Source: a bacterium (lineage in GTDB: Bacteria; Babelota; Babeliae; Babelales; JABCYS01). From it: DNA of 39,149 nt. The stretch lies in contig DAIDHG010000002.1 of NCBI GenBank assembly GCA_027452085.1, forward strand, positions 1-39,149, given 5' to 3'. Below the pieces are notes generated by a model. It searched no databases. It was not told the origin of the DNA and was given only the letters and a program-made list of their open reading frames with translations. This document shows, in pieces, positions 23 to 34,600 of this stretch (the first letter of the stretch is position 1; each line of letters opens with the position of its first letter). The position numbers and the translations under genes are program-made.

Positions 23-454
23 TTATTTCTTTAGCTGCCCGCGGGGCTCATACACCTGCGTTGCAGATTTCACTTTGATATCCTCTTGACGCACATTCCC
101 TTCGATAGGCCGTGTCAAAAATGTTTGCGGCTCTATCTTGTATGCACCTCGCGATATGACGATGCGTATATCAAGTTTGTTTCGGCCCCATGTTTTAAAC
201 TGATAGACAAAGGCAGCTTCGGGGTGATTCTCTTGAAACAAAATGAGTTGCGGATTAACAGGCACACGCATTTCCACCTCTGCTTTTGGTTTTATGGTGT
301 AGCTGGTCGTTATAATCGGCTTTTCTTGCTGCTCTGGGGCAATGACGAAGGAAAAGGTGTCGCTTGTTTTATTTAAAAATTTCATGGGAATTGTGCCAGC
401 GTTGCACTGCATGAATGCTAATGCGGCTGGCATAATGATCAATATTTTTTTCAT
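23..454 (-). CDS. Secreted hypothetical protein, member A of the NKT/LEPQT-domain paralog family
   Basis: 143-aa ORF with an N-terminal signal-like segment (MKKILIIMPAALAFMQCNA). Shares the motifs FLNKT, SYTIKP, RVP, IRIV and IEPQT (encoded at 122..133) with ORFs 1186..2091 and 13749..14696. I recognise no known family. Confidence 0.6.
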   Translation of the reverse strand: MKKILIIMPAALAFMQCNAGTIPMKFLNKTSDTFSFVIAPEQQEKPIITTSYTIKPKAEVEMRVPVNPQLILFQENHPEAAFVYQFKTWGRNKLDIRIVISRGAYKIEPQTFLTRPIEGNVRQEDIKVKSATQVYEPRGQLKK

Positions 455-494
455 GGTAGTGCCTTGAAATTGTTTTGTTACTCATCATAAAGAA

Positions 495-512
495 GGGCGG
501 CGCATGCCGCCC
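495..512 (-). terminator. Putative rho-independent terminator downstream of ORF 663..1103
   Basis: GC-rich hairpin gggcggc-gcat-gccgccc (7-bp stem, 4-nt loop). On the minus strand it is followed by TTCTTTAT. It lies about 150 nt after the stop, so the assignment is tentative. Confidence 0.4.
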
Positions 513-662
513 CTGGTTCAATCCGACCCGCTTATGTAGCGAGACCTCGATAATTTATGACTAAGTATCGTGCTTCTCAAGCTTGATCCAACAACCGTTC
601 GTCCTGAGCTTGTCGAAGGGCGATATAATTTTCGCATGTTGCGAAATACTGTATCTCGTGGT

Positions 663-1103
663 TTACTCGGTTTCTTCTTTAATCGTCACTTTGCCTGAGC
701 TATCTGAGCTTACAACCATACGGCCACCGCGTTTACGTTCGGTGTCGATCTCTTTTCGCACTACTTTGCCATTTTCACATACGTAATATCGAACTGTAAG
801 GCCATCATACAAATGCTCCATTGAATAAGATTCATTTGGCTGAAGCATGGTATAGGTGTGTTTAACCAGACCGCCGGCCTTGCTTACAGACTGTGCCGCT
901 TTGCCAAATATTGAGGATGCCTTCCAAGTGACCCAAATGTCACGATCAGTTTTATTGTCTACCTTAGTACGAATGCCGCGCACAACGCGTTTGCCCACTT
1001 CTTGCGCAAGCTCGCTTGAGCTTAATTCTGAGGCTGCCTTTTTAGCGCTGATCGTTGACGCGGTAATGGCAACGAGTGCCATGGTAATGAGTTGTTTCTT
1101 CAT
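663..1103 (-). CDS. Secreted hypothetical protein, possible distant member of the NKT-domain family
   Basis: 146-aa ORF with signal peptide MKKQLITMALVAITASTISA. It has VDNKTDRDIWVTW (compare FINKTNTDYKFII) and HTYTMLQPNESYSM (compare TSYTIKPKAEVEM), but no EPQT motif. Confidence 0.55.
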   Translation of the reverse strand: MKKQLITMALVAITASTISAKKAASELSSSELAQEVGKRVVRGIRTKVDNKTDRDIWVTWKASSIFGKAAQSVSKAGGLVKHTYTMLQPNESYSMEHLYDGLTVRYYVCENGKVVRKEIDTERKRGGRMVVSSDSSGKVTIKEETE

Positions 1104-1185
1104 CTACTTCCTTGTTGTTTAACGTTGTTGTTTTTACCCTTTGAGGATAGCTGATGTGTAAAGCTGAAAACAAGGGTTTTTTGCT

Positions 1186-2091
1186 TTACTTACACAGTTT
1201 TTCTTTAATTTCATGGTTTGTTGCATAATCGCAAGCAGTTTTATTGTTATCAAGTTGATTTTCAATCGCGGAGTCTGCGTGAGCTTGCAATAAAAGTTCC
1301 ACCGCAAATGGCTTGTTGAGTTGGGCGGCCCGCATTAAAGGGGTGAAGCCGTAGCCATCAACACTGTTTATATTGGCACCATGATCGATCAAGATGCCCA
1401 CGGTGCGAGCACCGGCATCCTGCTGGCCGCGCAGCGCATGATAAAATACTGAATGCCCTTGGGCATCTAATGAGTTTGGGTCAGCGCCATCCATGATAAG
1501 ATTTAATACGAGGTTTGGTTTGCCATATTTTGCCGCAAAAATGAGGGCATTATTTTTATTGTTTGGGTTAACCTGCGGCCGCGGCAACCGTGAAAAAAGA
1601 TCTTCAATGCCATGTATATCCTGAGCATCAAGATAGGTTAATAGCTCATAGTCATCAGATTCTGAGTGTGCAATAAGGTCGAGCAGGGGTCCTGATTTTA
1701 CTAAACTAATGTCATGAGCCGTTATATTTTCAGGTATTTTTCGCCAAAAATGAGTTTGCGGTTCTAAAATAGGGGGATGGTTTGGTGCAACCAACCGAAT
1801 TGCAGCTAATGATTGCTTGCCCGTCAATACCCTGAAAATATATCCCTGTGGCTTTGGCTTGTCTTCATACAAAAGAATTCTAAACATCGGAGCAGGAACC
1901 TGTAGAACCTGTCGGCTGTTTTTTGGCAACCTATAATGAGTTCCTACAAATCGGGGTGGCCGTTCGGGTGTGCCAATGATAAATTTGTAGTCGGTATTTG
2001 TTTTGTTGATGAAATCCAGTTTGGTTTCGTGAGGCTGAGCAATAATCGCCAACGGGAGTACCGTGAGCGCTCGCCATATATTTTTGTTCAT
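1186..2091 (-). CDS. Secreted ankyrin-repeat protein with an N-terminal NKT/LEPQT domain
   Basis: I prefer the start at ATG 2091 (MNKNIWRALTVLPLAIIAQP, preceded by aaaaaggatgcaga) over the track start at 2142. The N-terminal roughly 110 aa are paralogous to ORF 23..454, with ILEPQT encoded at 1753..1764. The C-terminal half has about 3 ANK repeats (NALIFAAKYGKPNLVLNLIMDGADPN; GHSVFYHAL...ILIDHGANIN; GFTPLMRAAQLNKPFAVELLLQAHAD). Confidence 0.8.
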   Translation of the reverse strand: MNKNIWRALTVLPLAIIAQPHETKLDFINKTNTDYKFIIGTPERPPRFVGTHYRLPKNSRQVLQVPAPMFRILLYEDKPKPQGYIFRVLTGKQSLAAIRLVAPNHPPILEPQTHFWRKIPENITAHDISLVKSGPLLDLIAHSESDDYELLTYLDAQDIHGIEDLFSRLPRPQVNPNNKNNALIFAAKYGKPNLVLNLIMDGADPNSLDAQGHSVFYHALRGQQDAGARTVGILIDHGANINSVDGYGFTPLMRAAQLNKPFAVELLLQAHADSAIENQLDNNKTACDYATNHEIKEKLCK

Positions 2092-2196
2092 TCTGCATCC
2101 TTTTTTAGCACTCTTGGTTAAGATACCCAAAGTAGAGTTCAAAAAACTAGAGTTTTTGGCATACTGATCGCCTATTCAACTCATAAAGGAAATATT

Positions 2197-2805
2197 ATGG
2201 CAAACAATGGCAAAATTAGCTTGGAACTTATCCAACAACTGCGTGAACGCACTGGCCTTGGCATGCTAGATTGCCGAAAGGCATTGGAAGAAACTGCTGG
2301 CGACGTAGAACAGGCGATTGAAAATCTGCGCAAAAAGGGCGCGGCTAAAGCAGCAAAACGTGCCGGAAATGTGGCAGCTGAAGGCCTGGTGCATGCCTAT
2401 ATTCACCCAGGTTCTCGCATTGGGGTGTTGGTAGAAATCAACTGCGAAACAGATTTTGTGGCCCGCACGGAGGACATTCGTCAATTTGCCCAAGATTTGT
2501 GCCTGCACATTACGGCAATGAAGCCAATGTATATTGAGCCAGCAGACGTTGATGAAAAATTCATCGTGCATGAGCGTGAAATTTTTAAAGCCCAACTTGC
2601 AGACTCTGGAAAGCCAGAAAAAATCATTGATCAAATCGTGAACGGTAAGATCGAAAAAATGTATGACGAAGTTTGCTTGAGCCGTCAGCCATTTGTTAAA
2701 AATGATCAGATGACGGTAAATGATGTGCTCGATGGCTTGAAGATGAAGATGGGTGAGAAGATCATCATTAAGCGTTTTGCCCGTTATGAAATCGGCGTTT
2801 ACTAG
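2197..2805 (+). CDS. tsf: Translation elongation factor Ts (short form)
   Basis: Contains the N-terminal UBA-like segment LIQQLRERTGLGMLDCRKALEETAGDVEQAIENLRKKG and the core VLVEINCETDFVART. An RBS (aaaggaaatatt) lies upstream. Confidence 0.95.
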   Translation: MANNGKISLELIQQLRERTGLGMLDCRKALEETAGDVEQAIENLRKKGAAKAAKRAGNVAAEGLVHAYIHPGSRIGVLVEINCETDFVARTEDIRQFAQDLCLHITAMKPMYIEPADVDEKFIVHEREIFKAQLADSGKPEKIIDQIVNGKIEKMYDEVCLSRQPFVKNDQMTVNDVLDGLKMKMGEKIIIKRFARYEIGVY

Positions 2806-2845
2806 CTACGAGTTAAAATAACAACGTTTTTGTGGGATTAAATTC

Positions 2846-3433
2846 ATGCTAACTCTCAATCTAAAGAACATGTACACCAACGACTTTGAGAAGTTGGTTG
2901 AAAAAGAGATGGATGCACCCATTAAGCATTTTGAGCGTGAGCTGGTTACTATTAGAACCGGCCGTGCCCACCCAGCTTTGGTAGAAGATATCAAGGTTAT
3001 CGTGTATGGTGGCACGCAAATGGCAATCCGCGAGCTTGCTTCAATCACAACACCTGAAGCACGCGTGCTCTTCATCCAACCATGGGATAAATCAATTATA
3101 GCTGATATTGAAAAGGCGATCATGGCATCATCGGTTGGGCTTACGCCAGCAAATGATGGCAATGTTATTCGCATTACTTTGCCTGAGATTAGTAGCCAGC
3201 GTCGCGAAGAACTTATCAAGGTTTTGGGCAAAAAACTTGAAGAAACACGTGAGCGTATCCGTGATGTGCGCGCTACTTTCAGAACTGCCGCTAAAGAAGC
3301 TGAGCGGAAAAAGGAAATCGAGGAAGATTTCTCTCTACGCTTGCAAGATTTGTTGCAAAAGATTCATGATAAATTTATCGCGCTCGCTCAGCAGATGAGT
3401 GATAAGAAAGAAAAAGAGATTAGGTCGGTTTAA
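2846..3433 (+). CDS. frr: Ribosome recycling factor
   Basis: 195 aa. LVTIRTGRAHPALVEDIKV, FIQPWDKS and GLTPANDGNVIRITLPEISSQRREEL are typical RRF blocks. Confidence 0.95.
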   Translation: MLTLNLKNMYTNDFEKLVEKEMDAPIKHFERELVTIRTGRAHPALVEDIKVIVYGGTQMAIRELASITTPEARVLFIQPWDKSIIADIEKAIMASSVGLTPANDGNVIRITLPEISSQRREELIKVLGKKLEETRERIRDVRATFRTAAKEAERKKEIEEDFSLRLQDLLQKIHDKFIALAQQMSDKKEKEIRSV

Positions 3434-5174: not shown

Positions 5175-6131
5175 ATGCATAAGCTCATTATCATCGGTTC
5201 TGGCCCCGCTGGGTTGACTGCAGCCATATATTCCGGTCGAGCAAACCTTCAGCCGCTTGTTATTGAAGGGCGTGCGCCTGGAGGCCAGCTGATGGGCACC
5301 ACCTTGGTAGAAAATTGGCCTGGTGATAAACGTATCATGGGCCCCCAGTTAATGAGTGAAATGCGCGCGCATGCCGTGGCGTGCGGTGCTCAGTTTGTGA
5401 GCGATGAAGTAGTTGAGATTGTGCCACTCCCCTCGGCCCATAATGGCTGCTCAATGTTTAATATAAAAACGAGCTCATCAGGTGATTTTGAGGCGCATGC
5501 TCTTATCGTAGCCTCAGGTGCCTCACCTAAAAAACTGCATGTGCCTGGCGAGGATACCTATTGGGGCAAAGGAGTGACCACCTGTGCCGTATGCGATGGT
5601 GCCTTGTTTGCTAATAAGCCAGTAGTAGTGGTTGGCGGTGGCGATACGGCCATGGAAGATGCCCTATTTTTGACCAAATACACCGATGATATAACGATTA
5701 TACAGCTTTTTGATAAGCTCACCGCCTCCTATGCCATGCAACAGCCGGTCCTTGCCAATACGAAGATAAAGATTCTGTATCATCAAGCGGTGAAAGAGAT
5801 CATTGGGGAGTCTGGCCATGCGCGCCAACTTGTGGTCACGGATCAGAGAAATGGCGAGCAAACCACCGTGGAAGCTGAAGGCATTTTTATTGCTATTGGC
5901 CAGGTCCCGAATACCAAATTTCTCAAGGGGCTGATCAATCTTGATGAGTATGGGTATGTGCGTCTGCATGAAGCAAAATCGGATAGGTTTAGCATGCTGA
6001 CTGCTACCTCAGTGCCTGGCATATTTGCGGCTGGCGATGTGGCCGATCAGCGTTACCGGCAAGCGATCAGTTCAGCAGGCAGTGGCTGTATGGCAGCGCT
6101 GGACGTTGAGCGTTATCTGAAAAAATATTGA
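5175..6131 (+). CDS. trxB: Thioredoxin-disulfide reductase (low-Mr type)
   Basis: Contains IIIGSGPAGLTAAIY (FAD GxGxxG), the CAVC redox pair (5583..5594), VVVVGGGDTAMEDALFL, GIFAAGDV and YRQAISSAGSGCMAALD. It starts 1 nt after the tig stop. Confidence 0.9.
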   Translation: MHKLIIIGSGPAGLTAAIYSGRANLQPLVIEGRAPGGQLMGTTLVENWPGDKRIMGPQLMSEMRAHAVACGAQFVSDEVVEIVPLPSAHNGCSMFNIKTSSSGDFEAHALIVASGASPKKLHVPGEDTYWGKGVTTCAVCDGALFANKPVVVVGGGDTAMEDALFLTKYTDDITIIQLFDKLTASYAMQQPVLANTKIKILYHQAVKEIIGESGHARQLVVTDQRNGEQTTVEAEGIFIAIGQVPNTKFLKGLINLDEYGYVRLHEAKSDRFSMLTATSVPGIFAAGDVADQRYRQAISSAGSGCMAALDVERYLKKY

Positions 6132-8624: not shown

Positions 8625-10062
8625 CCGTAGTGCTCAACATGATGAAAACGCGCGGCTCGGAGAAAGGGGGCCAACTCACCGGCCGCCTTCACCGTTTGTT
8701 CGACTGTATCTTTTGCTTATAACTATTTTGTTTTTGTTGTTTGGTTTTGAGCGAGAGTCAATCTGCAGTTCGCAACCATTGGCTCAGCCTGAGCAGCTTC
8801 AGATGGCCACCGTTACGGCGCAATTATTTGCCAAAATGCCGCTCCTTATAGTAACGCAATCGCAGAAGAATCTGAAAAAAATATTGCCACTATTTCAACA
8901 TGATCTTGAATTTACCAATCAGTTTGTGGTGAAAATTGCTCCTTCTCAGAATGAGTTTGAAATAAAGAAAAGCAGTTTTGCAAAATGGGCTGAAGAGGGC
9001 TATCCATTGGTGCTGTTGTTGGAAGATAAAAAAGATCAGATCATCTGGAGATTATACGACACCGCATCGATCTCAATGATCAAAGGGCAACAGTTGAGCG
9101 TTTCAAGCAAGCCAAATGTAACAGCCCATGCGCTTGCCGACCAAGTATGGCCGGCGCTCACGGGATCATCTGGATTTTTCTCTTCAAAAATTGCTTATAG
9201 CAAAATGGCGCACCGAAGAGGCCGCAATATTAAACGCCATCTCATGATGCGAGATGCCACTGACATGACGGGGCATAGTGAGGAATTACTGGTCAACTCA
9301 CCAACCATCAGTGTTTCCCCGCGGTGGAACAAAGATCTCAATTCACCAATCATTCTCTATTCTGAATATACCAAATCAAATGTGCGCTTAGTTGCGGTGA
9401 ATATGGAAGGAAAACGATCCATCGTCTCTAACTTTGATGGGGTGAATATGCAGGTTGCTTATAGCCATGATGGCAAGGAGGTGGTCTATTGTCTTTCACG
9501 GCCGCCGTTGCCGCATTTACCTTCGCACACCACCACCCAACTATACCATTACGCGGTTGATGACGATGGAAGACCGGCAGTCAAGCGATTAACGCCATTG
9601 CCGGGCAATAACTTTGCGCCATGCTGGGGGCCCGGTAATACCATTTTTTATGCAACTGACCTTGGTTCGTTGGGCAATCCAAAAATACATTGGCATTGCC
9701 TCAAGAGTGGAACGATCACTCCAATCACCGCCACCGGCTTTGCCGTAAGCCCTACCTACAGCCCATCTGCGCATCGCTTGGCATATGCCAAGATGGTGAA
9801 AGGGCGTATGCAGCTATTTTTATATGATCTAGATACCAAGAAAGAAGAGCAAATTACCTTTGATAACGCAAGCAAAGATGAATGTTGTTGGTCACCATGC
9901 GGTAATCTGTTGGCATTTGTTGCCGAGCAACCAAACGGCAAGAGCCGCATCGGATTGTTTAATGTGCAAACGGGCGAGCAAAAAATGATTACCCCGACCC
10001 ATGAAGATTGCTGCTACCCACATTGGTCGCCAATATATGCGCAGTTGCCGATGAAAAGTTAA
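8590..10062 (+). CDS. tolB: Tol-Pal system beta-propeller protein TolB
   Basis: Repeated propeller blades (SPRWNKD.., AYSHDGKEVVY, SPTYSPSAHRLAY, CCWSPCGNLLAF, YPHWSP). ATG 8590 has the RBS aagga and overlaps the tolA end. The N-terminal 35 aa before the hydrophobic leader are unusual, so the true start may be downstream. Confidence 0.85.
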   Translation: MVKKLFCRLLHNRSAQHDENARLGERGPTHRPPSPFVRLYLLLITILFLLFGFERESICSSQPLAQPEQLQMATVTAQLFAKMPLLIVTQSQKNLKKILPLFQHDLEFTNQFVVKIAPSQNEFEIKKSSFAKWAEEGYPLVLLLEDKKDQIIWRLYDTASISMIKGQQLSVSSKPNVTAHALADQVWPALTGSSGFFSSKIAYSKMAHRRGRNIKRHLMMRDATDMTGHSEELLVNSPTISVSPRWNKDLNSPIILYSEYTKSNVRLVAVNMEGKRSIVSNFDGVNMQVAYSHDGKEVVYCLSRPPLPHLPSHTTTQLYHYAVDDDGRPAVKRLTPLPGNNFAPCWGPGNTIFYATDLGSLGNPKIHWHCLKSGTITPITATGFAVSPTYSPSAHRLAYAKMVKGRMQLFLYDLDTKKEEQITFDNASKDECCWSPCGNLLAFVAEQPNGKSRIGLFNVQTGEQKMITPTHEDCCYPHWSPIYAQLPMKS

Positions 10063-11759
10063 CCTTTCTGTTTGAGAGGTAATGCAAGCGGCGGCGGGCA
10101 ACTCGTTTGTATTGAAGTGAGCATCGGTGAGATTGGGGGACTACCAATTGAGCTTGCCAGTGAGTCTGAATCCGATGTTGTTTGTGAGCTTGGAATTTCT
10201 GATGGGGGCGTTTCATAACCAGGCACGACTGTTTTCTTGGGGTCGATTTTTATAAAGCTATGATGCAAGCTTCGTGGTGGAAATAGGCTTGATTTAGACC
10301 CATTTTGTGCTGGTTCAGTACCCAATTCGGGTTTTGGCTGAGAGGATATTTGCTGTAGGTTCATTGGCGGCAACGATGCCAGAACTTTGATAGCGGGAAT
10401 GCTTGGTCTCCTAGGCGTTACATTACTAAATGGCAGCGGCATTGGCTGTTCGGCAGTATCTGCCATCGGCACATCTACATTTGTTGGCGAGGATAACGGC
10501 GTATGTTCGATGAAAGTTAATTCAGGATCAACAGCTGAATCTTCCCTCTGAGTATCTGGAGGTAGGGGGGATGATCGTGGTGTACCTTCTCCATATATTT
10601 CACTCAACTTATCGCTCAGAATCTTTTGACGATTTGAGAACATTTTCTGGCGCTCTGCTTGCATGTTTTTGTCAACTTTCGATTTTTGTGCATTGTCAAA
10701 AATCTCTTTTACCGGACCAACATGAGCTTTACACGTCTCTAAAACATCTATCAAAATTTTGTGGGTTTCAGCGGCTAAATCAAACAATTTATTATTTTTT
10801 AAACAGCCACGATGAGTTTTGAGTATACTTATGACGGCATCTTCAAGCATCATCTTTTTTGTCCAATCTTCCATAAGGGTCTTTAAATCAGATGTGGCTT
10901 GAATTGGAAAATCATGGATTAATTCAGATAGCCGACCATCAAGTGAGGGGATTGGGAGTCCTTCAGTGCTTGAATTTTCATATATTTCATAGGCCTTTTG
11001 GATAAATTGCAACTTCTCGAAAACCAAAGCAAAGCAGTCTCGTTGCCTCTTGGCCCATAAGGTAGTGAGCTCTTTTGTTGTGAGTGTTGCATCGTCGCAC
11101 GCTATGTTTCTGTTCGACCAAAGGCAATTGCCTAATACTAATGCAATGGCATATGGCCGAAATTCCTCAACGCTGGGCATTATCGTATCATCTAATTCTT
11201 GCGCGAATTCACGTCTTCGAGCACTGAAGGGGCTGTGTACTTCCTTTTTTCTTTTATCGTTTTTAGGGCTTGATCTGAGCGCGTCGTCTCGTTCGGTGGT
11301 ATTACAATCAAAATGATGCGTTTTGATTGGTGTTGAAACGAGGCTTCGCTCTTGTAACGTTCTATAAAGAGCACCTGGTACAATCTGTCCATTTACTTCT
11401 GAGTAGAGCCGCCTATGCTGAGCGACCTTTTGAAAATATAACATGCCAGTTTTCTGCAGCTGTTGTAAGGGGAATTCCCATTGTTTATATTCTTGCATAA
11501 TGCGGAAAAGCAAGTTTTCCCCTGCAGATGCATTCACCCATTGTGCCCATTCCATACCTTCGGGCGTTAAGACTTTGACCTGAGTATACAGTGATATTTT
11601 CTTGGCCAGCTTGTCCTCAGTGGAGCCGTCAATTTTTCGTTTTGCCTTTGATGAGTTGGTAATTCCCCGATCCTCCGGCGAAAGTGATGTGGCACCAATA
11701 GTATTGCACAAGCCCAGTAGGGTGAAAAGCAATAAATGGGGTATGCGCAATTGAATCAT
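10059..11759 (-). CDS. Large secreted hypothetical protein with a Pro/Ser-rich disordered C-terminal tail
   Basis: 566 aa with signal peptide MIQLRIPHLLLFTLLGLCNTIGA. I recognise no domain. The last 175 or so aa (10062..10586) are P/S/T-rich. It overlaps the tolB end by 4 nt in convergent orientation. Confidence 0.6.
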   Translation of the reverse strand: MIQLRIPHLLLFTLLGLCNTIGATSLSPEDRGITNSSKAKRKIDGSTEDKLAKKISLYTQVKVLTPEGMEWAQWVNASAGENLLFRIMQEYKQWEFPLQQLQKTGMLYFQKVAQHRRLYSEVNGQIVPGALYRTLQERSLVSTPIKTHHFDCNTTERDDALRSSPKNDKRKKEVHSPFSARRREFAQELDDTIMPSVEEFRPYAIALVLGNCLWSNRNIACDDATLTTKELTTLWAKRQRDCFALVFEKLQFIQKAYEIYENSSTEGLPIPSLDGRLSELIHDFPIQATSDLKTLMEDWTKKMMLEDAVISILKTHRGCLKNNKLFDLAAETHKILIDVLETCKAHVGPVKEIFDNAQKSKVDKNMQAERQKMFSNRQKILSDKLSEIYGEGTPRSSPLPPDTQREDSAVDPELTFIEHTPLSSPTNVDVPMADTAEQPMPLPFSNVTPRRPSIPAIKVLASLPPMNLQQISSQPKPELGTEPAQNGSKSSLFPPRSLHHSFIKIDPKKTVVPGYETPPSEIPSSQTTSDSDSLASSIGSPPISPMLTSIQTSCPPPLALPLKQKG

Positions 11760-12090
11760 GTCATTCCAGTATTATGTATATGCAACGACTTTTGGGCGAG
11801 GAATGACAACATACCATATGGCTATGAGCTTGCCAATTTTATTGCTGTTCCGTCAAAAACTCTAATGCTGTGTATCGCCAAAACCTCTATTCAAAAAGCA
11901 AAAAATTAATCTCGAGAAGAGAGTCTATGACGTATAAATGGCAATGACTTTGGCTCTACCAGGGTCCACGTTTGTTGGCATGCCGGTAGCGAGAGCTTGG
12001 ATTTGCTTGAGGAATGAAAATGGGCGGAGCGATGGCATCAACACCTGATGGTTCACCGCTCACACCCAAAGTTATGAGGCGAGAAAAAGA

Positions 12091-13083
12091 TTATTTTGTC
12101 TCTTCAAATACCTTTTTCATGGTAGCCAATGAGCTCATTAATGAGCTTGCCTCATATGGCATAAGTACCAGTTTGCCCTCTTTATCCTTCACCATGTCAG
12201 GCAATGTTTTAATGTATTGTTGCGCTATCAGGTATGGCAATGGATCCTGATTACCGACGGCACCTTTGATGAGTTCAATCGCTTTTGCTTCAGCTTCTTG
12301 AACCTTCAATCGAGCTTCGGCCTCGCCTTGCGCGGCGATAATTTTTCCTTCAGCAACTCCTTGTGATCGCAGAATTTCAGATTCGCGCTCACCCTGTGCC
12401 CGAAGAATTGCCGCACTCTTTTCACCTTCGGCGTCTAGAATGGTAGCGCGACGATTACGCTCAGCTCGCATTTGTTGCTCCATGGCTCGACGAATATCTT
12501 CCGGAGGGTTTACTTCCTGGAGTTCAACGCGATTTACCTTGACGCCCCATTTATCAGATGCCTCATCCAAAATAATGCGCAATTTCTCATTGATACGATC
12601 GCGCGAAATGAGTGTTTCATCCAAATCCATAGAGCCGATAACATTACGCAACGTCGTCTGCGCAAGTTTTTCAATTGCTTCGGGAAGATTTGCAATTTCA
12701 TACACGGCAGCTTTGGGATCGGTAATCTGAGCATAGAGCAACGCATTAATTTCAAGCATCACGTTATCTTTCGTGATAACTTTTTGCTTGGGAAAATCAT
12801 ACACCGCTTCTCGTAGGTCAATACGATTCATCGAACGCATTGTTTTAAGATAGCGTTTATCATCTATTACCTGAATTTCGGTCCATGCCACATGTCGCGG
12901 GGTATCCATAAATGGCATAATGAAATGCAGACCAGGAGTGAGAATGCGATCAAAGCGCCCAAATCGCTCGATGATGATTGCTTCTGCCTGGCGAACTAAA
13001 TAGATTGCATTGATGATAAATACAATAAATGCCACGAAAGCTATGGCAAAAAAGACGATGAAACCAATTGCGATGTCATTCAT
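12091..13083 (-). CDS. SPFH/band-7 (stomatin/QmcA-like) membrane protein
   Basis: N-terminal TM (IAIGFIVFFAIAFVAFIVFII), then the SPFH core (IIERFGRFDRILTPGLHFIMPF, VITKDNVMLEINALLYAQI, TLRNVIGSMDLDETLISRD, VNRVELQEVNPPEDI) and an Ala/Glu-rich coiled coil. I prefer ATG 13083; the track begins at TTG 13122. Confidence 0.85.
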   Translation of the reverse strand: MNDIAIGFIVFFAIAFVAFIVFIINAIYLVRQAEAIIIERFGRFDRILTPGLHFIMPFMDTPRHVAWTEIQVIDDKRYLKTMRSMNRIDLREAVYDFPKQKVITKDNVMLEINALLYAQITDPKAAVYEIANLPEAIEKLAQTTLRNVIGSMDLDETLISRDRINEKLRIILDEASDKWGVKVNRVELQEVNPPEDIRRAMEQQMRAERNRRATILDAEGEKSAAILRAQGERESEILRSQGVAEGKIIAAQGEAEARLKVQEAEAKAIELIKGAVGNQDPLPYLIAQQYIKTLPDMVKDKEGKLVLMPYEASSLMSSLATMKKVFEETK

Positions 13084-13183
13084 AGAAAGAGCCCTTTCGA
13101 TTTTATAATTCACGACCTCCAAACGTTTTCGTGCGACGAAACGTATCTCAGGAATACGAGCGTGAATTATATTGCTCGTATTG

Positions 13184-13615
13184 TTATTCTGCTTTTACGA
13201 TAAGAGATGCGCCGGCAACGTGTACGACAACTACCTTGGTGCCTTGATGTAATATTTCATTATGCAGCTCACGAGCGAGCCATCGTTCAGTGCCAACCAA
13301 CACATAGCCCGGTTGAAATGGTGAAATCGTTTCAACCACCATGCCATGCTTACCAACCAATGCATATATATTGGTGTGATGATGCGATGTTGATTGTGCT
13401 TTGGATAATGCCATTCGGGCAATGATGAAAGAGACAATACTGGTGATCAAGAAAACCGATGCTTGATAGACCAAAGCCTCGGGGTAATACCACGCAGCAA
13501 CGGCGGCCAGGGCACCACCAGCGGCAAATGATAAAAATAGAAATAGTCCGGGGTGCCCAATTTCTAAAATAATAGAGATGAGTGCAGCGGAAAGCCAGAA
13601 GTAAAAAAGGGTCAT
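13184..13615 (-). CDS. NfeD-family membrane protein (short YbbJ-like form)
   Basis: Three or four TM helices followed by a C-terminal OB-like domain (GKHGMVVETISPFQPGYVLVGTERWLAR...GTKVVVVHVAGASLIV). It sits immediately upstream of the SPFH gene, the classic NfeD-stomatin operon arrangement. Confidence 0.8.
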   Translation of the reverse strand: MTLFYFWLSAALISIILEIGHPGLFLFLSFAAGGALAAVAAWYYPEALVYQASVFLITSIVSFIIARMALSKAQSTSHHHTNIYALVGKHGMVVETISPFQPGYVLVGTERWLARELHNEILHQGTKVVVVHVAGASLIVKAE

Positions 13616-13675
13616 GTTGACCTCCTGATCGGCGCTAGATGCTGCTTTGGTCAGCTGAAGATGCGCGAGTTATAC

Positions 13676-13711
13676 AAAAGTGCAAGCATGATATCAGATG
13701 CATGCACTTTT
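13676..13711. terminator. Rho-independent terminator (bidirectional shape) after ORF 13749..14696
   Basis: aaaagtgcaagcat-gatatcag-atgcatgcactttt. The stem is 14 bp with one mismatch and is flanked by A-run and T-run. It lies about 40 nt downstream of the minus-strand stop. Confidence 0.6.
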
Positions 13712-13748
13712 ACAACGTGTTTGCGCAGTAATATTGCATGCAATTTTC

Positions 13749-14696
13749 TTATCTTCCTGCAGGAAGAGTTATTTTTGGTAACTGAATTGGGCCCGCAGCA
13801 GTGCGAGTAGATGCAGCGGCGATCTTTTGCTGTAATGTTTGCAACACTTTGGGATTTTTAAAATCAACAGAAGGATAATTGAGATAGTCTGCGGCAAGCT
13901 TGCGCAATAGCTCTGGCGTCAACCGAGTATCGTTGGGAACTGCTTGCTTAATGCGTTCTGCCATTTTTTCTATTTCGAGTTCTTTGTTGGCCTCTTCACC
14001 TTCTTCTTCCATCTCTTCCTCTTCCACAACTCCTCTACGTTTGCCCATCGCGGATGCAAGGCTTGTGTATTGGTGCGCAGCGGGTGCTTTAAGGTTTTTA
14101 GGCATTGCAAGAGTTGGTCTTGCTGAGCTTTCTGGTGCGGGCTGTTTCATTTCCAATGGCGGCGCTTGAGGAACTGGTTGTCGTTTTACAAAAGTTTTTG
14201 GTGGCGTGGTAGGCAGCGGCGGCGGTGTTTTAACTGTGGCAGCAATTGGCGCGGGCTTTTTGGATTGTATACCTTCACCGACAACGCCCTTGTTGGTGAT
14301 CGAAGTTCTATCCAAATTTCCCCATACATATGTTTGTGGTTCCAAACTTGGTGTGCCATTAACGTCGATAAGCCGTACAAAAATCTTTGTTCCTTTTTTT
14401 GGATTAAATTCGTACAGCTGCCCAAACGGGGCTGGTTTTCCATCTACTTCTTGCTTGATCAATAATTGTGGGAAGTCGCTATTGTTGACTGATATGGTAT
14501 TTGATTTGCTCCATTTTTCCTTTTTCTTATTAAATGCCGGTAAAAGGCTCAACGATGAACTGTTGGAGGGCGGGTTTTGTCTGTTTCCTACGGCATAATA
14601 AACGGGAACATCAATCTTATTCCAGAACTCAAATTCTTCTGCGTGCAATAATGCCGTGCTTAAGAAAATGAAAAGTTTGGTTATATCTCTAAACAT
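13749..14696 (-). CDS. Secreted hypothetical protein: NKT/LEPQT-family domain plus proline-rich linker plus acidic tract
   Basis: I prefer the start at ATG 14696 (RBS aaggga; leader MFRDITKLFIFLSTALLHA), because the track start at 14837 would overlap the upstream gene. It has FEFWNKIDVPVYYAVG and KIFVRLIDVNGTPSLEPQTYVW (EPQT encoded at 14331..14342). These are followed by PPPLPTTPPKTFVKRQPVPQAPPLEMKQPAPE (14127..14258) and VVEEEEMEEEGEE. Confidence 0.65.
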   Translation of the reverse strand: MFRDITKLFIFLSTALLHAEEFEFWNKIDVPVYYAVGNRQNPPSNSSSLSLLPAFNKKKEKWSKSNTISVNNSDFPQLLIKQEVDGKPAPFGQLYEFNPKKGTKIFVRLIDVNGTPSLEPQTYVWGNLDRTSITNKGVVGEGIQSKKPAPIAATVKTPPPLPTTPPKTFVKRQPVPQAPPLEMKQPAPESSARPTLAMPKNLKAPAAHQYTSLASAMGKRRGVVEEEEMEEEGEEANKELEIEKMAERIKQAVPNDTRLTPELLRKLAADYLNYPSVDFKNPKVLQTLQQKIAAASTRTAAGPIQLPKITLPAGR

Positions 14697-14775
14697 ACAT
14701 GATCCCTTGTCATAGATATTGGTTATATTCTCACTATGCCAGGAATCCTTGATCTGAATCAAGAGTTGAGGCTTA

Positions 14776-15792
14776 TTACTCTTTTTCTTCTTGTGGCGCC
14801 TGAGTTGAGATGTCGATTTGTTGGGCAACCTTGGCAAAACATTTTCTTAAATCCAATGGAGCTATGTCAAAGTATGAAAGATCACACGTGGTATCTGCAT
14901 TTTTAGCGCATTCAAGTAGATGCTCGAGGAGCTTTTCGCTTGCGGTTTCATCACCAATTGGATTTTCTTGCTCAAACTGCTTATGGTAATCGCCAGTGCT
15001 CAACAAAAACTTTACCATTGCATCAATGTGCCCTGAGCCTTGGGCGATAAAGAGATGCTTGTCTTCACGATGTTGCCAAATAAAGTTGGCAGTTCTTGCA
15101 TCGACTAATTCGCGAGTAGGCATTTCGGGAGTATCTTCATCTTCATCATGTTCTTGGTTGAACCACTCGATCACCTCTGTGTTTACTTTTTGAAGGCACT
15201 CGGTCCAAAATTGTTTATAGATCTGGGGAGCTTGGTCTTGCTCCAGCTCTGCAGCAATCTCTTTTTGCAGATGATTACACTGCTCCCTGAGCTTGGAAAG
15301 AGTATGATTGCTATTGAAAAATCGGCATTCGGCATTTATGCATGGCCACTTGAGATCATAAAATCGCTGACTGATATCATGCAAAAAGGATTCGTGTCCA
15401 CCTCTAAATAACGGAAAATGCGTTACAGGGCACACTCTGGTGCTCATATCTTCATTAATCATGGTGGCATTTGAGCCGGGAAGATTGGCAATAAAGCTCT
15501 GCAAATCAGATCCCTGTTCCTTGACTGATGATACGAGTCGTTTGCGGACTGCTTCTACTACCAGATGCCTGTTTGGCAGGGGGATGCCAGATTCCTTTGC
15601 AAAACAAAATATGCTGTGTGCGTGATGCAAAGCCATTTCATCATGAACATCACCAAGAAAATGCAGATAGCGCGTTTGACCATCGCTGTGCACTGATTTT
15701 AAAACAACATATTTGTGAATAATTGCTTCCGTTGAGCATGCAGCAAAAGTTGATAGTGCAGCCAATAGAATGTTGAACTTTTTTGTGTGCAT
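14776..15792 (-). CDS. Secreted hypothetical protein, possible TIKI/TraB/ChaN-superfamily hydrolase
   Basis: 338 aa with signal peptide MHTKKFNILLAALSTFAACS. The N-terminal YLHFLGDVHD (GxxH) and C-terminal ELVDARTANFIW...HLFIAQGSGHIDAMVKFLLSTGDY (R..., GxGH...L..G-Y) resemble the motif order of the TraB/TIKI family. The family call is an inference from motifs only. Confidence 0.55.
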   Translation of the reverse strand: MHTKKFNILLAALSTFAACSTEAIIHKYVVLKSVHSDGQTRYLHFLGDVHDEMALHHAHSIFCFAKESGIPLPNRHLVVEAVRKRLVSSVKEQGSDLQSFIANLPGSNATMINEDMSTRVCPVTHFPLFRGGHESFLHDISQRFYDLKWPCINAECRFFNSNHTLSKLREQCNHLQKEIAAELEQDQAPQIYKQFWTECLQKVNTEVIEWFNQEHDEDEDTPEMPTRELVDARTANFIWQHREDKHLFIAQGSGHIDAMVKFLLSTGDYHKQFEQENPIGDETASEKLLEHLLECAKNADTTCDLSYFDIAPLDLRKCFAKVAQQIDISTQAPQEEKE

Positions 15793-18309: not shown

Positions 18310-20955
18310 ATGAAAAAGCGAGCAAAAAGACCACCAATGTTCCAAGGTGCACCACGCAATCTCCTCTTAGTAGTCGGCCTATTAATGATTGGGTTGCTCA
18401 CCCTGGTCAAACTCAATGAATCAATCACCCAAATTAAGCAGCTGAGCTATACCAGCTTCCTCAAAAAGGTAGAGTCGCATGAGGTAAAATCTATCCGTGT
18501 GACCGGCCAGGGGATATGGGGCCAATTTACCTCGGGCGAGCAGTTTGAAACACTGCTGCCTGAAGGGTATCGCGATTGGGATTTCTTTAAAAATAATAAT
18601 GTAGATGTGCTTATTGATTCTCAGGCGGCTCAATGGAGCCTGGGGCTTGTCCTTGGCGGCCTGCTCTCACTCTTTGCCTTAGTCGGACTGGGAGTCTTTC
18701 TATATCGCCAGTCGCGCAACGGCGGCGGTGGTGGCGGCGGCACCATTTTCTCAATGGGCAAAAGCCGTGCTCGTGTATTTATGCCATCACAAATAAAAAC
18801 CAAATTCTCTGATATTGCCGGTGCATCTGAGGCTAAAGAACAGCTAAAAGATGTGGTTGATTACCTGAAATATCCTGAAAAATATCGCCGACTCGGCGCC
18901 AAGGTTACCCGCGGCGTGTTATTGGTAGGTGAGCCAGGCAATGGTAAGACCCTCATGGCCCGCGCCGTTGCTGGTGAGGCCGGTGTGCCATTTTTTAGTA
19001 TTACTGGATCAGACTTTATAGAAGTTTTCGTGGGCGTTGGTGCTTCACGAGTTCGTGATCTCTTTGCCCAAGCGCGCAAATATGCACCGGCAATCATCTT
19101 TATCGATGAAATTGATGCTATCGGCCGCATGCGCGGCAGTGGTCTTGGCGGTGGTCATGATGAGCGTGAGCAAACCCTCAATCAGTTGCTCACTGAGATG
19201 GATGGTTTTGAAACCGGCGATGCGCCACCATTAATTGTTCTTGCTGCAACCAATATGCCAGATGTACTCGATAAGGCCCTGCTTCGCCCGGGTCGATTTG
19301 ATCGTCGGGTGACGGTGCCGTTCCCTGATCTGAAAGATCGCGAACAAATTTTATGGATCCATGCCTCGTCTATTATGCTTGATCCATCAGTTGATCTTGG
19401 CAAAATGGCTGCGGTCACTGCCGGCTTTAGCGGGTCTGATCTGGCCAATTTGGTGAATATTGCTGCTATTAACGCTTCAAAAGCCAACCGATCAGCCGTG
19501 AGCCAAGAGGATTTTGAAGCCGCACATAAAAATATTTTGCAATCACATGCTACTGATGGCACAAAGACATCCGCCGAAAAGAGCGTATATACCCCCAAGA
19601 TGCTGATGCCGGCCCAGATGAAATTGAACTTTAATTCGGTGGCAGGGGCTACTGAAGCCAAAGAAGAGTTAAAAGATGTGGTCGATTTCCTGCGCAATCC
19701 TGAAAAGTACCAGCGTCTTGGTGCCCAAATGCCAAAAGGGGTATTGCTGACCGGCGAACCCGGTAACGGTAAAACCTTGTTGGCCAAGGCGGTGGCTGGA
19801 GAAGCAAATGTGCCGTTCTTTCATGCCAGCGGCTCTGAATTTGTTGAAAAATATGTCGGCGTTGGCGCTGCCCGTGTACGTGAGCTCTTTACCAATGCGC
19901 GCCGCCATGCACCCGCCATCATCTTTATGGATGAAATCGATGCCATTGGCAGTAAGCGAGTGTATGAAGGTGGCGGCTCACAAGAGCATTCCCAAACGTT
20001 AAACCAACTGCTTACTGAGCTTGATGGGTTTGATACTATGACTGGTGGCCCCGTCATTATTATGGGCGCGACCAATAGGCCAGACGTGCTTGATAAAGCT
20101 TTGCTGCGCCCGGGTAGATTTGATAAGCAGGTAGAGGTGCCATACCCAGACTTGGTAAGTCGTAAAAAGATCTTAGAGCTGCATGCCAAAGATAAGAAGA
20201 TTGATCCTTCTATTAGTTTTGATGCGCTGGCCCGCGGCACCCCTGGATTCTCGGGAGCAGAGCTTGCAAATCTTATCAATGAGGCCGTTATTCATGCTTC
20301 CAAGCTGAATAAGGAAATGGCTACATTGTCTGATTTTGAAGAAGCTCGCGATAAGATCCTATTGGGCAAAGAAAGTAAATCAAAACTTCTGACCAAGGAA
20401 GATCTTGAGGTCACGGCATACCATGAAGCTGGCCATGCCTTGGTCCGCTTGCTCTTGCCGCAGCATTCTGACCCTCTGTATAAGATAACCATTATTCCTC
20501 GGGGCCGTGCATTGGGGGTGACCCACTCATTGCCTGAGAAGGAAAGCTATACCCGTGATAAAGAGCATATGCTTGCAAGCATTGCCTCTGCCTTAGGCGG
20601 CCGGGCAGCCGAAGAGATTGTCTTTAACCGTTTAGAAACAGGGGCAGCGAGCGATTTTCAAGCCGCAACCTCTGTGGCTCGGAACATGGTGGTAAATTAC
20701 GGCATGTCGGAAAAGCTTGGCCTGGTTTCCTATGCTGATTTCCGCTATTTATCGCAGCACACGATCCAGCTTATTGACGATGAAATTCGTTCAATAACCA
20801 ATCAGTGCTATGATCGTGCAAAGCATTTGTTGAGCTCGAACCGCGACAAACTGGATCTTTTGGCCAAGAAACTCTTGGAAAAAGAGACTTTGTATGCCGG
20901 TGAGATCTATGAATTGCTTGGCATTACCCCGCGTGAGCAGTTTAAGTTGTCGTAG
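18310..20955 (+). CDS. ftsH: ATP-dependent zinc metalloprotease FtsH with a tandemly duplicated AAA+ module
   Basis: 881 aa. The order is: two TM segments flanking a periplasmic domain; a poly-Gly linker; AAA module 1 (Walker A GEPGNGKT at 18928..18951, Walker [33 protein letters not shown]); AAA module 2 (GEPGNGKT at 19753..19776, [29 protein letters not shown]); then an M41 peptidase with HEAGH (20422..20436). Confidence 0.9.
18778..19539 (+). repeat. FtsH AAA+ module, copy 1 of an intragenic tandem duplication
   Basis: Residues about 157-410 align colinearly with residues about 432-684, at a constant 275-aa offset. By eye roughly two thirds of positions are identical. Confidence 0.85.
19603..20361 (+). 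repeat. FtsH AAA+ module, copy 2 of an intragenic tandem duplication
   Basis: See copy 1. The pore-loop motif is FVGVGA in copy 1 and YVGVGA in copy 2. Confidence 0.85.
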
Positions 20956-21711: not shown

Positions 21712-22758
21712 ATGAAAACGTATATTAAAAGGGTCGTTCCTCTGGCGATCTATCTCTCCTTGCCATTAATAGGTTCATCTTTTGAATCTGATACTAGTCT
21801 TAGAGATATATTCTCTCAGATAAAACCCGACATGTTTGAAATTGACCCACGCTATGGGCGACCTGACCCTGATCAGTTTTTATTTGGTCCAGAAGATAGT
21901 GTTTTCAAGCAATCATGTGTGCAAAAGGCTGAGAATTTGCGTTTGTTGAAAATCGATCAAGAAGCCATAGCAGTAGGGCAAGATGATATTGGTACCACGG
22001 GCTTAGTGATTGATAGATCTGGCAGCTATTATTTAAAGGAAGATATTAATTTTAATCCTGATCCATCAGGTAATGCTACCGCTGCCATCACCATTAACGC
22101 ATCGAAGGTGACCCTATTTCTTGATGGCCATGCTCTTATTCAGCAAGGTTTTACCGATGCCTCAGATATTCCAATCTATCGGGGAGCAAGAAAGCCATCC
22201 TCGCAAAAGCCATTTGTCACCGGCATTTTGATCTCGAATGTGATGCAAAATTCAAAAGATCCCCAAGCTGACGGGCTCCATGATATTGCCATAGTGGGTT
22301 CCGGTGCCATCATTAATGGCTTTAGCCAATATGGCATTCGCATCTCGGAAAATAGTTCTCGCATTTCCGTCATTGATATTGCAATAAAAAATTGCGGTAC
22401 GGTAGCTTCCTACTATCTACATCCTGAAAGTTACTATACACGTGAGGAGCCGTATGGGCCTGCCTTTGGTGTCGGCGGGATGTACGTTGGGGATTGCAGG
22501 GATTTAGCAGTTGGTTCAACTCATAACCGGGTAGATAATCTATTGATTGCCAATGTGGATTGCCTAAATAATTTCTTGTATGGTCTTTGCATGGTAAATG
22601 TGACTAATTGGTATCTTGGAAATAGCACATTTGATGGAACGTTTAGTGATGATCCACGGCTGTGCGATCCACGTGCAGCTTTTTGGGACGGTGATTGTTT
22701 TACCGGGCGTTACGAGATTGATGGGATTGTTTGTAGCGGTACTGTTTGTAAATGGTGA
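21712..22758 (+). CDS. Secreted hypothetical protein, probable right-handed parallel beta-helix (pectin-lyase-like fold)
   Basis: Signal peptide MKTYIKRVVPLAIYLSLPLIGSS. It has repetitive coils of about 22-25 aa rich in I/V-x-I/N/G (AAITINASKVTLFLDGHALI, TGILISNV, HDIAIVGSGAIINGFSQYGIRISENSSRISVIDIAIKNCG, NLLIANVDCLNN). The C-terminus is Cys-rich. The fold call is an inference. Confidence 0.5.
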   Translation: MKTYIKRVVPLAIYLSLPLIGSSFESDTSLRDIFSQIKPDMFEIDPRYGRPDPDQFLFGPEDSVFKQSCVQKAENLRLLKIDQEAIAVGQDDIGTTGLVIDRSGSYYLKEDINFNPDPSGNATAAITINASKVTLFLDGHALIQQGFTDASDIPIYRGARKPSSQKPFVTGILISNVMQNSKDPQADGLHDIAIVGSGAIINGFSQYGIRISENSSRISVIDIAIKNCGTVASYYLHPESYYTREEPYGPAFGVGGMYVGDCRDLAVGSTHNRVDNLLIANVDCLNNFLYGLCMVNVTNWYLGNSTFDGTFSDDPRLCDPRAAFWDGDCFTGRYEIDGIVCSGTVCKW

Positions 22759-23039
22759 TAAAGGTATGACATAAAGAGCGACTCCTGTGAAAAGAATCGG
22801 AAAATGGCTCACATAACGTAAGAGGCCATGTTTTCTCAACATGAGCTCACGGTTAGACTTCTTCTACCCTCAACGTTTAAGATGGCAAACAGAGGCCTTG
22901 TAGTGCTAGACCCAAAAATCCATCTTGATTGATCATTTCAGACATGCATATAAAACAACTCTTGTAATTAGTCCGTAGCTTCCTATATGATTATTCATGA
23001 ATGTATCACTTCATATAAATGTTATTAAAGGAGTTATCG

Positions 23040-23441
23040 ATGAAGCTTACAAAAATGATGACATTGCCAGCAGCTATTATGATTGGTCAGGTAGCTTTTG
23101 CATACCCAACCAATGACAGTCAACACCATCACCGAGCTATGGTAAAAACAGCCAGGCCAATGCAACATCAACCACAAAATAACGTAGTAAAAGCTCAGTT
23201 GCACAATCAACCAGTAAAAAGCCAAGCGCAAGCTATTCCAGCTTCTAGCCGGGGCGGTAAGAAGGTGGAAGTTATAACCGGTTCTATGATGAAATCAGTT
23301 GAACGGTCAAAGCAACCGAATTTGATCTTTAAAAATGCCACGGGTAAGCAGATAAGCGAAGCTGAATATAACAGACTGCGCACAGTGCCAGGCTCTGGCG
23401 TTCATTATGAGGTTCCTGCATCGGTTAGACAACAGGGATAA
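23040..23441 (+). CDS. Small secreted hypothetical protein, His/Gln-rich N-terminal region
   Basis: ATG 23040 has a strong RBS (aaaggag). Signal peptide MKLTKMMTLPAAIMIGQVAFA, followed by SQHHHRAM..MQHQPQNN..QLHNQP. I recognise no family. Confidence 0.5.
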   Translation: MKLTKMMTLPAAIMIGQVAFAYPTNDSQHHHRAMVKTARPMQHQPQNNVVKAQLHNQPVKSQAQAIPASSRGGKKVEVITGSMMKSVERSKQPNLIFKNATGKQISEAEYNRLRTVPGSGVHYEVPASVRQQG

Positions 23442-34445: not shown

Positions 34446-34600
34446 GGTTTTTCCTTTCTTGTTTACCATGAGTATGCCTATACCCTTTTTGGCGTGACAA
34501 GAATTGGTGGCGGTACAACAATCAATCTGTTATCTATCGCCAACTCTTGCGTAAATATAGTTGTTCTTGTTACAACATACATAAGATGTTGGGAGATCCG

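Follow-up and report, generated by a model that had tools for sequence, protein, structure and literature searches.

Bacteria of the phylum Dependentiae live inside protists as obligate parasites (PMC6561590, PMC4776705). In the cultured C. destructans, signal peptides were reported on 44% of the proteins and on 78% of its 98 ankyrin proteins (PMC6561590), and a type II secretion system with two copies of gspD was reported to be core to Dependentiae genomes (PMC4776705). The phylum is widespread and almost uncultured, and leader-bearing ORFans and ankyrin proteins abound in its genomes. Polymorphic secreted effectors of intracellular bacteria are known; what is new in our study is an undescribed constant N-terminal module, the NK...EPQT domain, carried by three leader-bearing proteins (genes A, C and D) of contig DAIDHG010000002.1 (assembly GCA_027452085.1). 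The window, that is, the whole stretch of 39,149 nucleotides (nt) that was analysed, is assigned to a Dependentiae (Babeliales) bacterium from the names of its FtsH homologues. The domain probably marks a small family of host-manipulating effectors.

The NK...EPQT domain and its carriers

An earlier note on this DNA had described three consecutive leader-bearing open reading frames sharing a domain over about 105 amino acids (aa), and a further copy at 13749..14696. The three frames (A, B and C) were found at the positions given there, all on the minus strand, and the further copy was confirmed as gene D. The claim of three consecutive members was wrong, because the middle frame, B, was not detectable as a member by BLASTP, profile hidden Markov model (HMM) or hhalign. 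Judged by sequence comparison, the array would consist of a member, an unrelated or undetectably diverged secreted ORFan and a second member, with a third member 11.6 kb away. The features of the three member genes were as follows.

23..454, minus strand: gene A, 143 aa, leader and domain only, without a C-terminal module (open reading frame; family HMM, E=1e-39; leave-out HMM)
398..454, minus strand: putative Sec-type leader of A, residues 1-19, MKKILIIMPAALAFMQCNA, two Lys followed by a 10-residue window of mean hydropathy 2.68 (heuristic)
59..397, minus strand: domain in A, residues 20-132, NKT at 365..373 and EPQT at 122..133 (HMM alignment)
1186..2091, minus strand: gene C, 301 aa, leader, domain and ankyrin repeats (open reading frame; Shine-Dalgarno motif before the ATG at 2091)
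1690..2031, minus strand: domain in C, residues 21-134, NKT at 1999..2007 and EPQT at 1753..1764 (alignment, HMM)
1204..1575, minus strand: ankyrin module of C (Pfam Ank_2, E=1.5e-19, plus Ank, Ank_3, Ank_4 and Ank_5)
13749..14696, minus strand: gene D, 315 aa, leader, domain, proline-rich stretch, acidic stretch and helical tail (open reading frame; Shine-Dalgarno motif before the ATG at 14696)
14241..14645, minus strand: domain in D, residues 18-152, with a longer internal loop, NKI at 14613..14621 and EPQT at 14331..14342
13752..14261, minus strand: C-terminal part of D, proline-rich (PPPLPTTPP, VPQAPPL), with an acidic run EEEEMEEEGEE and a tail (read from the sequence)

The EPQT codons of A and C were located exactly where the earlier note had placed them, and those of D were found in addition. 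The Asn-Lys and EPQT motifs stand at residues 28 and 108 in A, 29 and 110 in C, and 26 and 119 in D. AAGGA-type Shine-Dalgarno motifs precede the ATG codons of B, C and D (AAGGA/AAGGGA for C and D). An alternative TTG start of C at 2142 would add 17 residues; the shorter starts chosen before for C and D were retained, and the gene preceding D ends at 14776, before the ATG of D is reached. Leaders were scored in the family members by a heuristic combining charge and Kyte-Doolittle hydropathy. The Sec-type leaders proposed for A, B, C and D all passed this heuristic and are predicted in all four proteins: one to three basic residues stand first, and the mean hydropathy of the 10-residue window behind them is 2.5-2.7. 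The Ank_2 match of C (70.8 bits, cut-off 27.3) was above the gathering score, and no Pfam ankyrin match was found for A, B or D.

The similarity between A and C was recovered by BLASTP over 110 aa with 27% identity (E=6e-10), followed by C and D (E=1e-5) and A and D (E=1e-4). A profile made from 26 sequences of other genomes, without those of the window, was searched against the six-frame open reading frames of the window and eight loci. It matched D (3.6e-31), A (5.7e-30) and C (1.8e-18), and it found no further match in the window. The window copies are just 20-27% identical pairwise, which would suit a chance or compositional artefact and a domain that does not exist. The probability of such an artefact is practically negligible, given these E values, the position and motifs common to 32 independent homologues, and the confident alignment-based AlphaFold model described below.

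The homologues were obtained by an exhaustive HMMER search with a three-sequence profile against 1.84 billion cluster representatives, which returned 34 proteins at E<=1e-3, including 18 at E<=1e-10. Thirty-two of the 34 were genuine members, aligned across the whole domain. The remaining two, the cadherin-like P0010 (2147 aa) and P0021 (1169 aa), contained ten partial matches each to 29-50 profile positions and were rejected; the matched part was a repeated '...VNE[VA]P.I.PQTF' linker, which was not N-terminal and had no leader before it. The exhaustive search was needed because word-indexed searches with A alone and with the family alignment A2 returned only the query and two proteins. Because of its diversity, alignment A2 did not suit a pattern scan of loci, and subfamily patterns were used instead. 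The A-subfamily patterns found one locus of a metagenome-assembled genome among the genome representatives and none in the JGI metagenomes, and the D-subfamily patterns found none in the JGI metagenomes or IMG/VR.

The domain alignment contained invariant Asn9 and Gln91, and nearly invariant Lys10, Arg78, Glu89, Pro90, Thr92 and Ile107. The domain of each full-length member begins between residues 18 and 39, immediately behind a leader-like N-terminus, and its Asn-Lys falls within residues 25-44; E-P-Q-T, placed for the family near domain residue 90, is present in A, C and D. The leader heuristic was passed by 29 of the 31 members scored, the failures being N-terminally truncated gene calls; the full start of P0005 is seen in locus L002. 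The acquisition of different C-terminal modules, which the earlier note had proposed, was found across the family in the following forms.

Nothing or a short tail: A, P0007, P0009, P0012, P0025, P0027, P0031, P0034 (eight)
Ankyrin repeats (Pfam): C, P0004, P0006, P0016, P0017, P0020, P0026
DnaJ J-domain (Pfam, down to 1e-12): P0005, P0014, P0018, P0020, P0023, P0029, P0033
Proline-rich repeats with Pfam WH2 (E down to about 1e-11): P0011, P0013, P0019
Large modules without a Pfam match: P0015, P0024, P0028, P0030

Pro/Ala/Gln-rich linkers follow the domain in most of the long members. P0008 (615..1928 of the metagenome contig L001) resembles the WH2 group without a Pfam match. APPM/APPL proline repeats and acidic-Trp ends (EEEWGT, EEWETD, NDDWET, NNEEWD) were present in P0008, P0011, P0013 and P0019. 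A WH2 motif with an acidic-Trp tail recalls the VCA region of WASP-family Arp2/3 activators. In D, WH2 was absent from the Pfam matches at E<=1, the protein ends in ...ITLPAGR without an acidic-Trp end, and no relic of a lost acidic-Trp tail was found downstream. The tail of D seemed collinear by eye with that of P0008, which was rejected as not significant (E=10). Among the large modules, the C-terminal 500 aa of P0015 (662 aa) contain 'HGHGNEG' and 'SCYSGG', recalling the His/Cys dyad of caspase-like (clan CD) peptidases; this module had no Pfam or PDB sequence match.

The view that the family is locally expanded and rapidly diverging was not borne out. Domain identity among A, C and D was 20-21%, whereas the identity to proteins of other genomes was 42% for A and P0005, 46% for C and P0004, and 50% for D and P0016; no DNA-level repeats were found between the window copies. 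Since their mutual identity is so much lower than that to foreign proteins, A, C and D would be ancient paralogues of distinct subfamilies and not the product of a recent local burst. P0004 matched C collinearly along its full length of 301 residues (44% identity, E=4e-92), so the fusion of domain and ankyrin repeats is conserved between genomes. Domain cluster 11 mixed J-domain, ankyrin, WH2-like and domain-only proteins, and the domain of D was nearest to that of the ankyrin protein P0016, whereas its tail weakly resembled that of the WH2 protein P0013 (E=0.001). Domain subfamilies thus do not track the C-terminal modules, which points to a constant head with shuffled tails. Tandem placement was also seen on L001, an unrelated contig, where P0012 and P0008 lie 34 nt apart, followed by a leader-bearing non-member.

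No known family had been recognised in the earlier note, and this held in our searches: the domain had no match in Pfam or NCBIfam, and the best hit of a profile search of PDB sequences was at E=0.14. No description of it was found in the literature on Dependentiae with WH2 or type II secretion effectors. The domain is undescribed within the libraries searched, its structural novelty being judged against the PDB and viral predicted structures. The AlphaFold2 model of A residues 20-143, made with a 29-sequence alignment (predicted local distance difference test, pLDDT, 90.5; predicted template modelling score 0.83), contained nine beta-strands, with the last ten residues disordered, so the beta-sandwich expected earlier agrees with an all-beta prediction. 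Foldseek found no PDB structure at E<=1e-3; the best PDB matches were generic sandwiches with template modelling (TM) scores of 0.33-0.53, among them thaumatin-like proteins, the Aar2 N-domain, the VHL beta-domain, transthyretin and cytolysin domain 4, and the best E value against viral predicted structures was 1.4e-3.

Thaumatin-like proteins appeared repeatedly among the top Foldseek matches in both libraries (2ahn, E=5e-3; 3zs3; 7p23; two giant-virus thaumatin proteins), and the N-terminal 'FEFLNKT..P[IV].[FY]' of the domain is loosely like the ATFEIVNRCSYTVW of thaumatin. The domain might on these grounds be a very remote thaumatin-like or lectin-like sandwich with a carbohydrate-binding or antimicrobial role. 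However, the TM scores of these matches were 0.36-0.39, with root-mean-square deviations up to 14.7 A, and there was no Pfam Thaumatin match. With about 115 residues the domain is short, and it is practically free of cysteine (four in total in 29 domain sequences, none in the domains of A, C and D), whereas thaumatins have about 200 residues and 16 conserved Cys (eight disulfides). A thaumatin relationship was rejected on the Pfam, cysteine and TM results, and we give this reading a very slight chance. A sortase-type signal (LPXTG / NPQTN) was considered for EPQT and rejected as well: EPQT lies within a beta-strand of the confidently modelled domain, 32 to about 190 residues from the C-terminus, and no hydrophobic segment follows it.

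Possible roles of the domain

We give about even chances to the reading that A, C and D are Sec-exported modular Babeliales proteins targeting the host, in which the domain is a common trafficking or anchoring handle. The two parts of this reading differ in strength: a secreted, modular, host-targeting family is likely, whereas the specific role of the domain as a handle is plausible at somewhat less than even chances. The proposed architecture would comprise a cleavable leader, a basic, cysteine-free beta-sandwich of about 115 residues and, usually, a Pro/Ala/Gln-rich linker with an interchangeable module. The beta-sandwich would fold after Sec export, and would then either carry the protein across the outer membrane, for which the type II secretion system is a candidate route, or hold it on the anionic outer surface. 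The C-terminal module would finally engage host proteins: the ankyrin repeats of C may bind a host protein, the J-domains of the relatives may recruit host Hsp70, and their proline-rich and WH2 motifs with the acidic-Trp tail may act on actin and Arp2/3.

J-domains depend on Hsp70 and ATP and WH2 motifs on actin, partners that the periplasm does not hold. We infer from this that the family acts outside the bacterium, in or on the host. The suggestion of an effector-like family in a host-associated bacterium was reasonable, because the Dependentiae, to which the host of this DNA would belong, are obligate intracellular parasites of protists. The handle role fits with the position of the domain after the leader, the Pro/Ala/Gln linkers, the basic charge and the free exchange of modules. 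The isoelectric point (pI) of the domain had a median of 9.3 and was at least 8.7 in 28 of the 29 members, compared with a median of 7.9 for the proteins of the window.

A different reading holds that these are envelope or periplasmic proteins without a host role, in which the ankyrin, J-domain and WH2 modules are coincidental or act inside the bacterium. Sec leaders indeed prove only export to the periplasm, and ankyrin proteins can function there in some bacteria, a Bdellovibrio self-protection example being cited in PMC6561590. This reading is very unlikely, considering the Pfam matches to WH2 (about 1e-11) and DnaJ (1e-12), whose partners are absent from the periplasm, and the obligate intracellular parasitism of the lineage.

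The domain could also be a host-side localisation module, a basic sandwich that binds a host membrane lipid or an organelle surface and concentrates the fused modules there; stand-alone copies such as A would then compete or scaffold. The domain-only proteins (A, P0007, P0009, P0025, P0031, P0034) and the family-wide consistency of the basic charge favour it, and cytolysin domain 4 and actinoporins were among the weak Foldseek neighbours (E 0.03-0.07, TM about 0.35-0.43, not significant). However, these structural matches are at noise level, the strict position after the leader is typical of export or anchoring modules whereas lipid-binding domains vary in position, and nothing separates this reading from one of anchoring or trafficking. 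We regard it as rather doubtful, although the stand-alone copies, which suggest a binding activity of the domain itself, speak for it.

In a stronger form of the handle reading, the sandwich would be the recognition or retention tag of an unrecognised effector-delivery route in Dependentiae, and a Sec-exported protein so tagged would pass the outer membrane or be held on the bacterial surface, exposed to the host cytosol. To our knowledge, no type III or IV effector system has been described in Dependentiae. We consider a dedicated tag of this kind unlikely. If it were true, the effectors could be listed from sequence alone, and the members with WH2 and acidic-Trp motifs would imply surface-driven Arp2/3 actin assembly by these bacteria.

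Several observations weigh against the reading of secreted host-targeting proteins with a common handle. Stand-alone copies such as A would be odd for a pure export tag. No secretion-system gene was found near the family genes within the 39-kb contig, and no structural analogue hints at a function, the best Foldseek E values being at least 1.4e-3 and the TM scores at most 0.53. The basicity is mildly above the background, as 37% of the window proteins have a pI above 9. The signal peptides were judged by a hydropathy heuristic.

The shared N-terminal module provides a sequence handle for recognising one effector family and a concrete candidate for the export or anchoring step, and the relatives with WH2 and acidic-Trp motifs are candidates for mimicry of WASP-type actin regulators. 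It is a small family, with about 32 clusters among the representatives searched, probably from one clade, and its reach is accordingly limited.

The middle gene and the genomic setting

Two further features were found among the genes of the array.

663..1103, minus strand: gene B, a 146-aa leader-bearing ORFan between A and C (Shine-Dalgarno AAGGAAG; family not detected)
493..514, minus strand: G+C-rich hairpin of nine pairs, terminator-like, between B and A (consensus scan)

The hairpin suggests that A may be transcribed apart from B and C. The array may extend past the contig end, because the stop codon of A is only 22 nt from it.

Gene B had been said to keep the NKT and xYTxxP blocks and to lack EPQT. 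An NKT was indeed seen at residue 50 and EPQT was absent, but relatedness to the family was not detected. BLASTP gave no alignment of B with A and E=6.9 with C, and the family HMM did not report B even at E<=10 with the filters off. Only 11 columns around 'VDNKTDRDIWV' were aligned by hhalign, with a probability of 0.3%, and phmmer found no homologue of B in any of the loci compared. The single-sequence AlphaFold model of B (pLDDT 44.5) was uninformative. B was rejected as a family member, none of these methods giving support; it may be an extremely diverged beta-rich relative, which no result supports. Leader-bearing ORFans beside members elsewhere (2178..3173 of L001, YKVTVQNETNYTLRV; 4106..4819 of L002, MRITNNTGGPITLY) have a mature start that forms an 'x-V-x-V-x-N-x-T' strand, and the mature start of B is alike (TKVDNKTDRDIWV). 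The family HMM detected none of these three. The shared start might reflect a very remote superfamily, or merely a common beta-strand opening.

The assignment of the organism rests on ftsH at 18310..20955 on the plus strand, which encodes an 881-aa FtsH whose M41 peptidase is preceded by two complete AAA modules. Many homologues are of nearly the same length, about 880 aa, with 55-91% identity, and all those with an organism name were labelled Babeliaceae, Babeliales or Dependentiae. Duplication of the AAA module in FtsH seems to be characteristic of the phylum; longer versions, of 1433-1484 aa, were found as well (P0044-P0051).

The housekeeping genes of the window were tsf, frr, two tRNAs, trigger factor, trxB, tolQRAB, ftsH, PBP2, an xerC-like gene and thrS. 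The neighbours of A-C were tsf, frr, the tRNAs and trigger factor, whereas those of D were SPFH, NfeD and alaX-like genes. No match to the window was found in the plasmid collection, and neither A nor C had an identical entry in the contig index.

The tolB-ftsH interval (10059..15792) was variable when the window was compared with loci L003, L005 and L007 and a contig of JGI 3300050821. In the window it holds D and leader-bearing ORFans of 566 aa (10059..11759) and 338 aa (14776..15792). In locus L007, tolB abuts ftsH, and in the JGI contig the slot contains an ankyrin protein and a 641-aa ORFan. Locus L003 (91% FtsH identity) has Vps62-domain and ankyrin proteins upstream, and four tandem LRR proteins downstream, after rpsT. 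The FtsH loci of the relatives kept the housekeeping backbone and differed in the content between conserved genes, and no family member was found in these loci. D thus occupies a variable effector slot and is absent from the regions around FtsH that were compared in close relatives.

Other observations were made in the window. At 34547..35641 on the plus strand lies a second thioredoxin-reductase-like protein with a leader (MRIKSLLILFTLPLVADD...), besides the ordinary trxB at 5175..6131, and L002 has a leader-bearing counterpart at 11022..12047 (36% identity); an exported flavoprotein disulfide reductase is unusual. At 2197..3433 on the plus strand, frr directly follows tsf, without pyrH between them, and EF-Ts is short (202 aa); this would agree with a loss of nucleotide biosynthesis, as expected where energy and nucleotides are taken from a host. 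Leader-bearing proteins without a Pfam match are encoded at 21712..22758 and 23019..23441, both on the plus strand, and the former (348 aa) has a 343-aa orthologue at the same position in L003 and L004.

Comparison with known systems

The TPS domain of TpsA proteins (two-partner secretion) is similar in design: a conserved, folded domain comes directly after the Sec leader, the protein needs it to cross the outer membrane, and the passenger behind it varies. The TPS domain is, however, a beta-helix of about 250 residues with NPNL and NPNGI motifs that needs an adjacent TpsB, whereas the present domain is a predicted nine-strand sandwich of about 115 residues with NK...EPQT. No Pfam Haemagg_act match was found, and no TpsB (Omp85-type) gene was present in the flanks of A-C or D in the window. 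The C-terminal domain (CTD) of type IX secretion is likewise a small beta-sandwich sorting domain on diverse Sec-exported cargo, which also serves for surface attachment. The CTD, which PorU cleaves, stands at the C-terminus and is restricted to Bacteroidota, whereas the domain reported here is N-terminal in all members and occurs in Dependentiae; no match to Por_Secre_tail was found in Pfam or NCBIfam.

The N-terminal trafficking domains of polymorphic toxins and effectors share with this family a constant N-terminal module, shuffled C-termini and paralogues that are sometimes in tandem. They differ in that the modules found here would target eukaryotes and are not toxins with immunity genes; no immunity-like pattern was seen. 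The relatives P0011, P0013 and P0019 resemble the actin-directed proteins RickA, BimA, Sca2, VopL/VopF and TARP in having WH2 with proline repeats, whereas none of the latter has this N-terminal domain. Compared with WASP-like factors, D of the window has a proline-rich part without WH2 or an acidic-Trp end, both of which are found together only in P0011, P0013 and P0019.

In its setting the family resembles the eukaryote-like effectors, ankyrin proteins included, of Dependentiae (Babela, Chromulinavorax) and Legionella, which also belong to intracellular parasites of protists and whose genes also lie in variable slots between conserved housekeeping genes. The fusion of ankyrin repeats to a Sec leader is shared with the ankyrin effectors of Dependentiae, whereas those of Legionella carry a C-terminal Dot/Icm signal instead of a Sec leader. 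None of these effectors has been described with a shared N-terminal domain, whereas in the family reported here ankyrin, J-domain, WH2 and module-less proteins share one.

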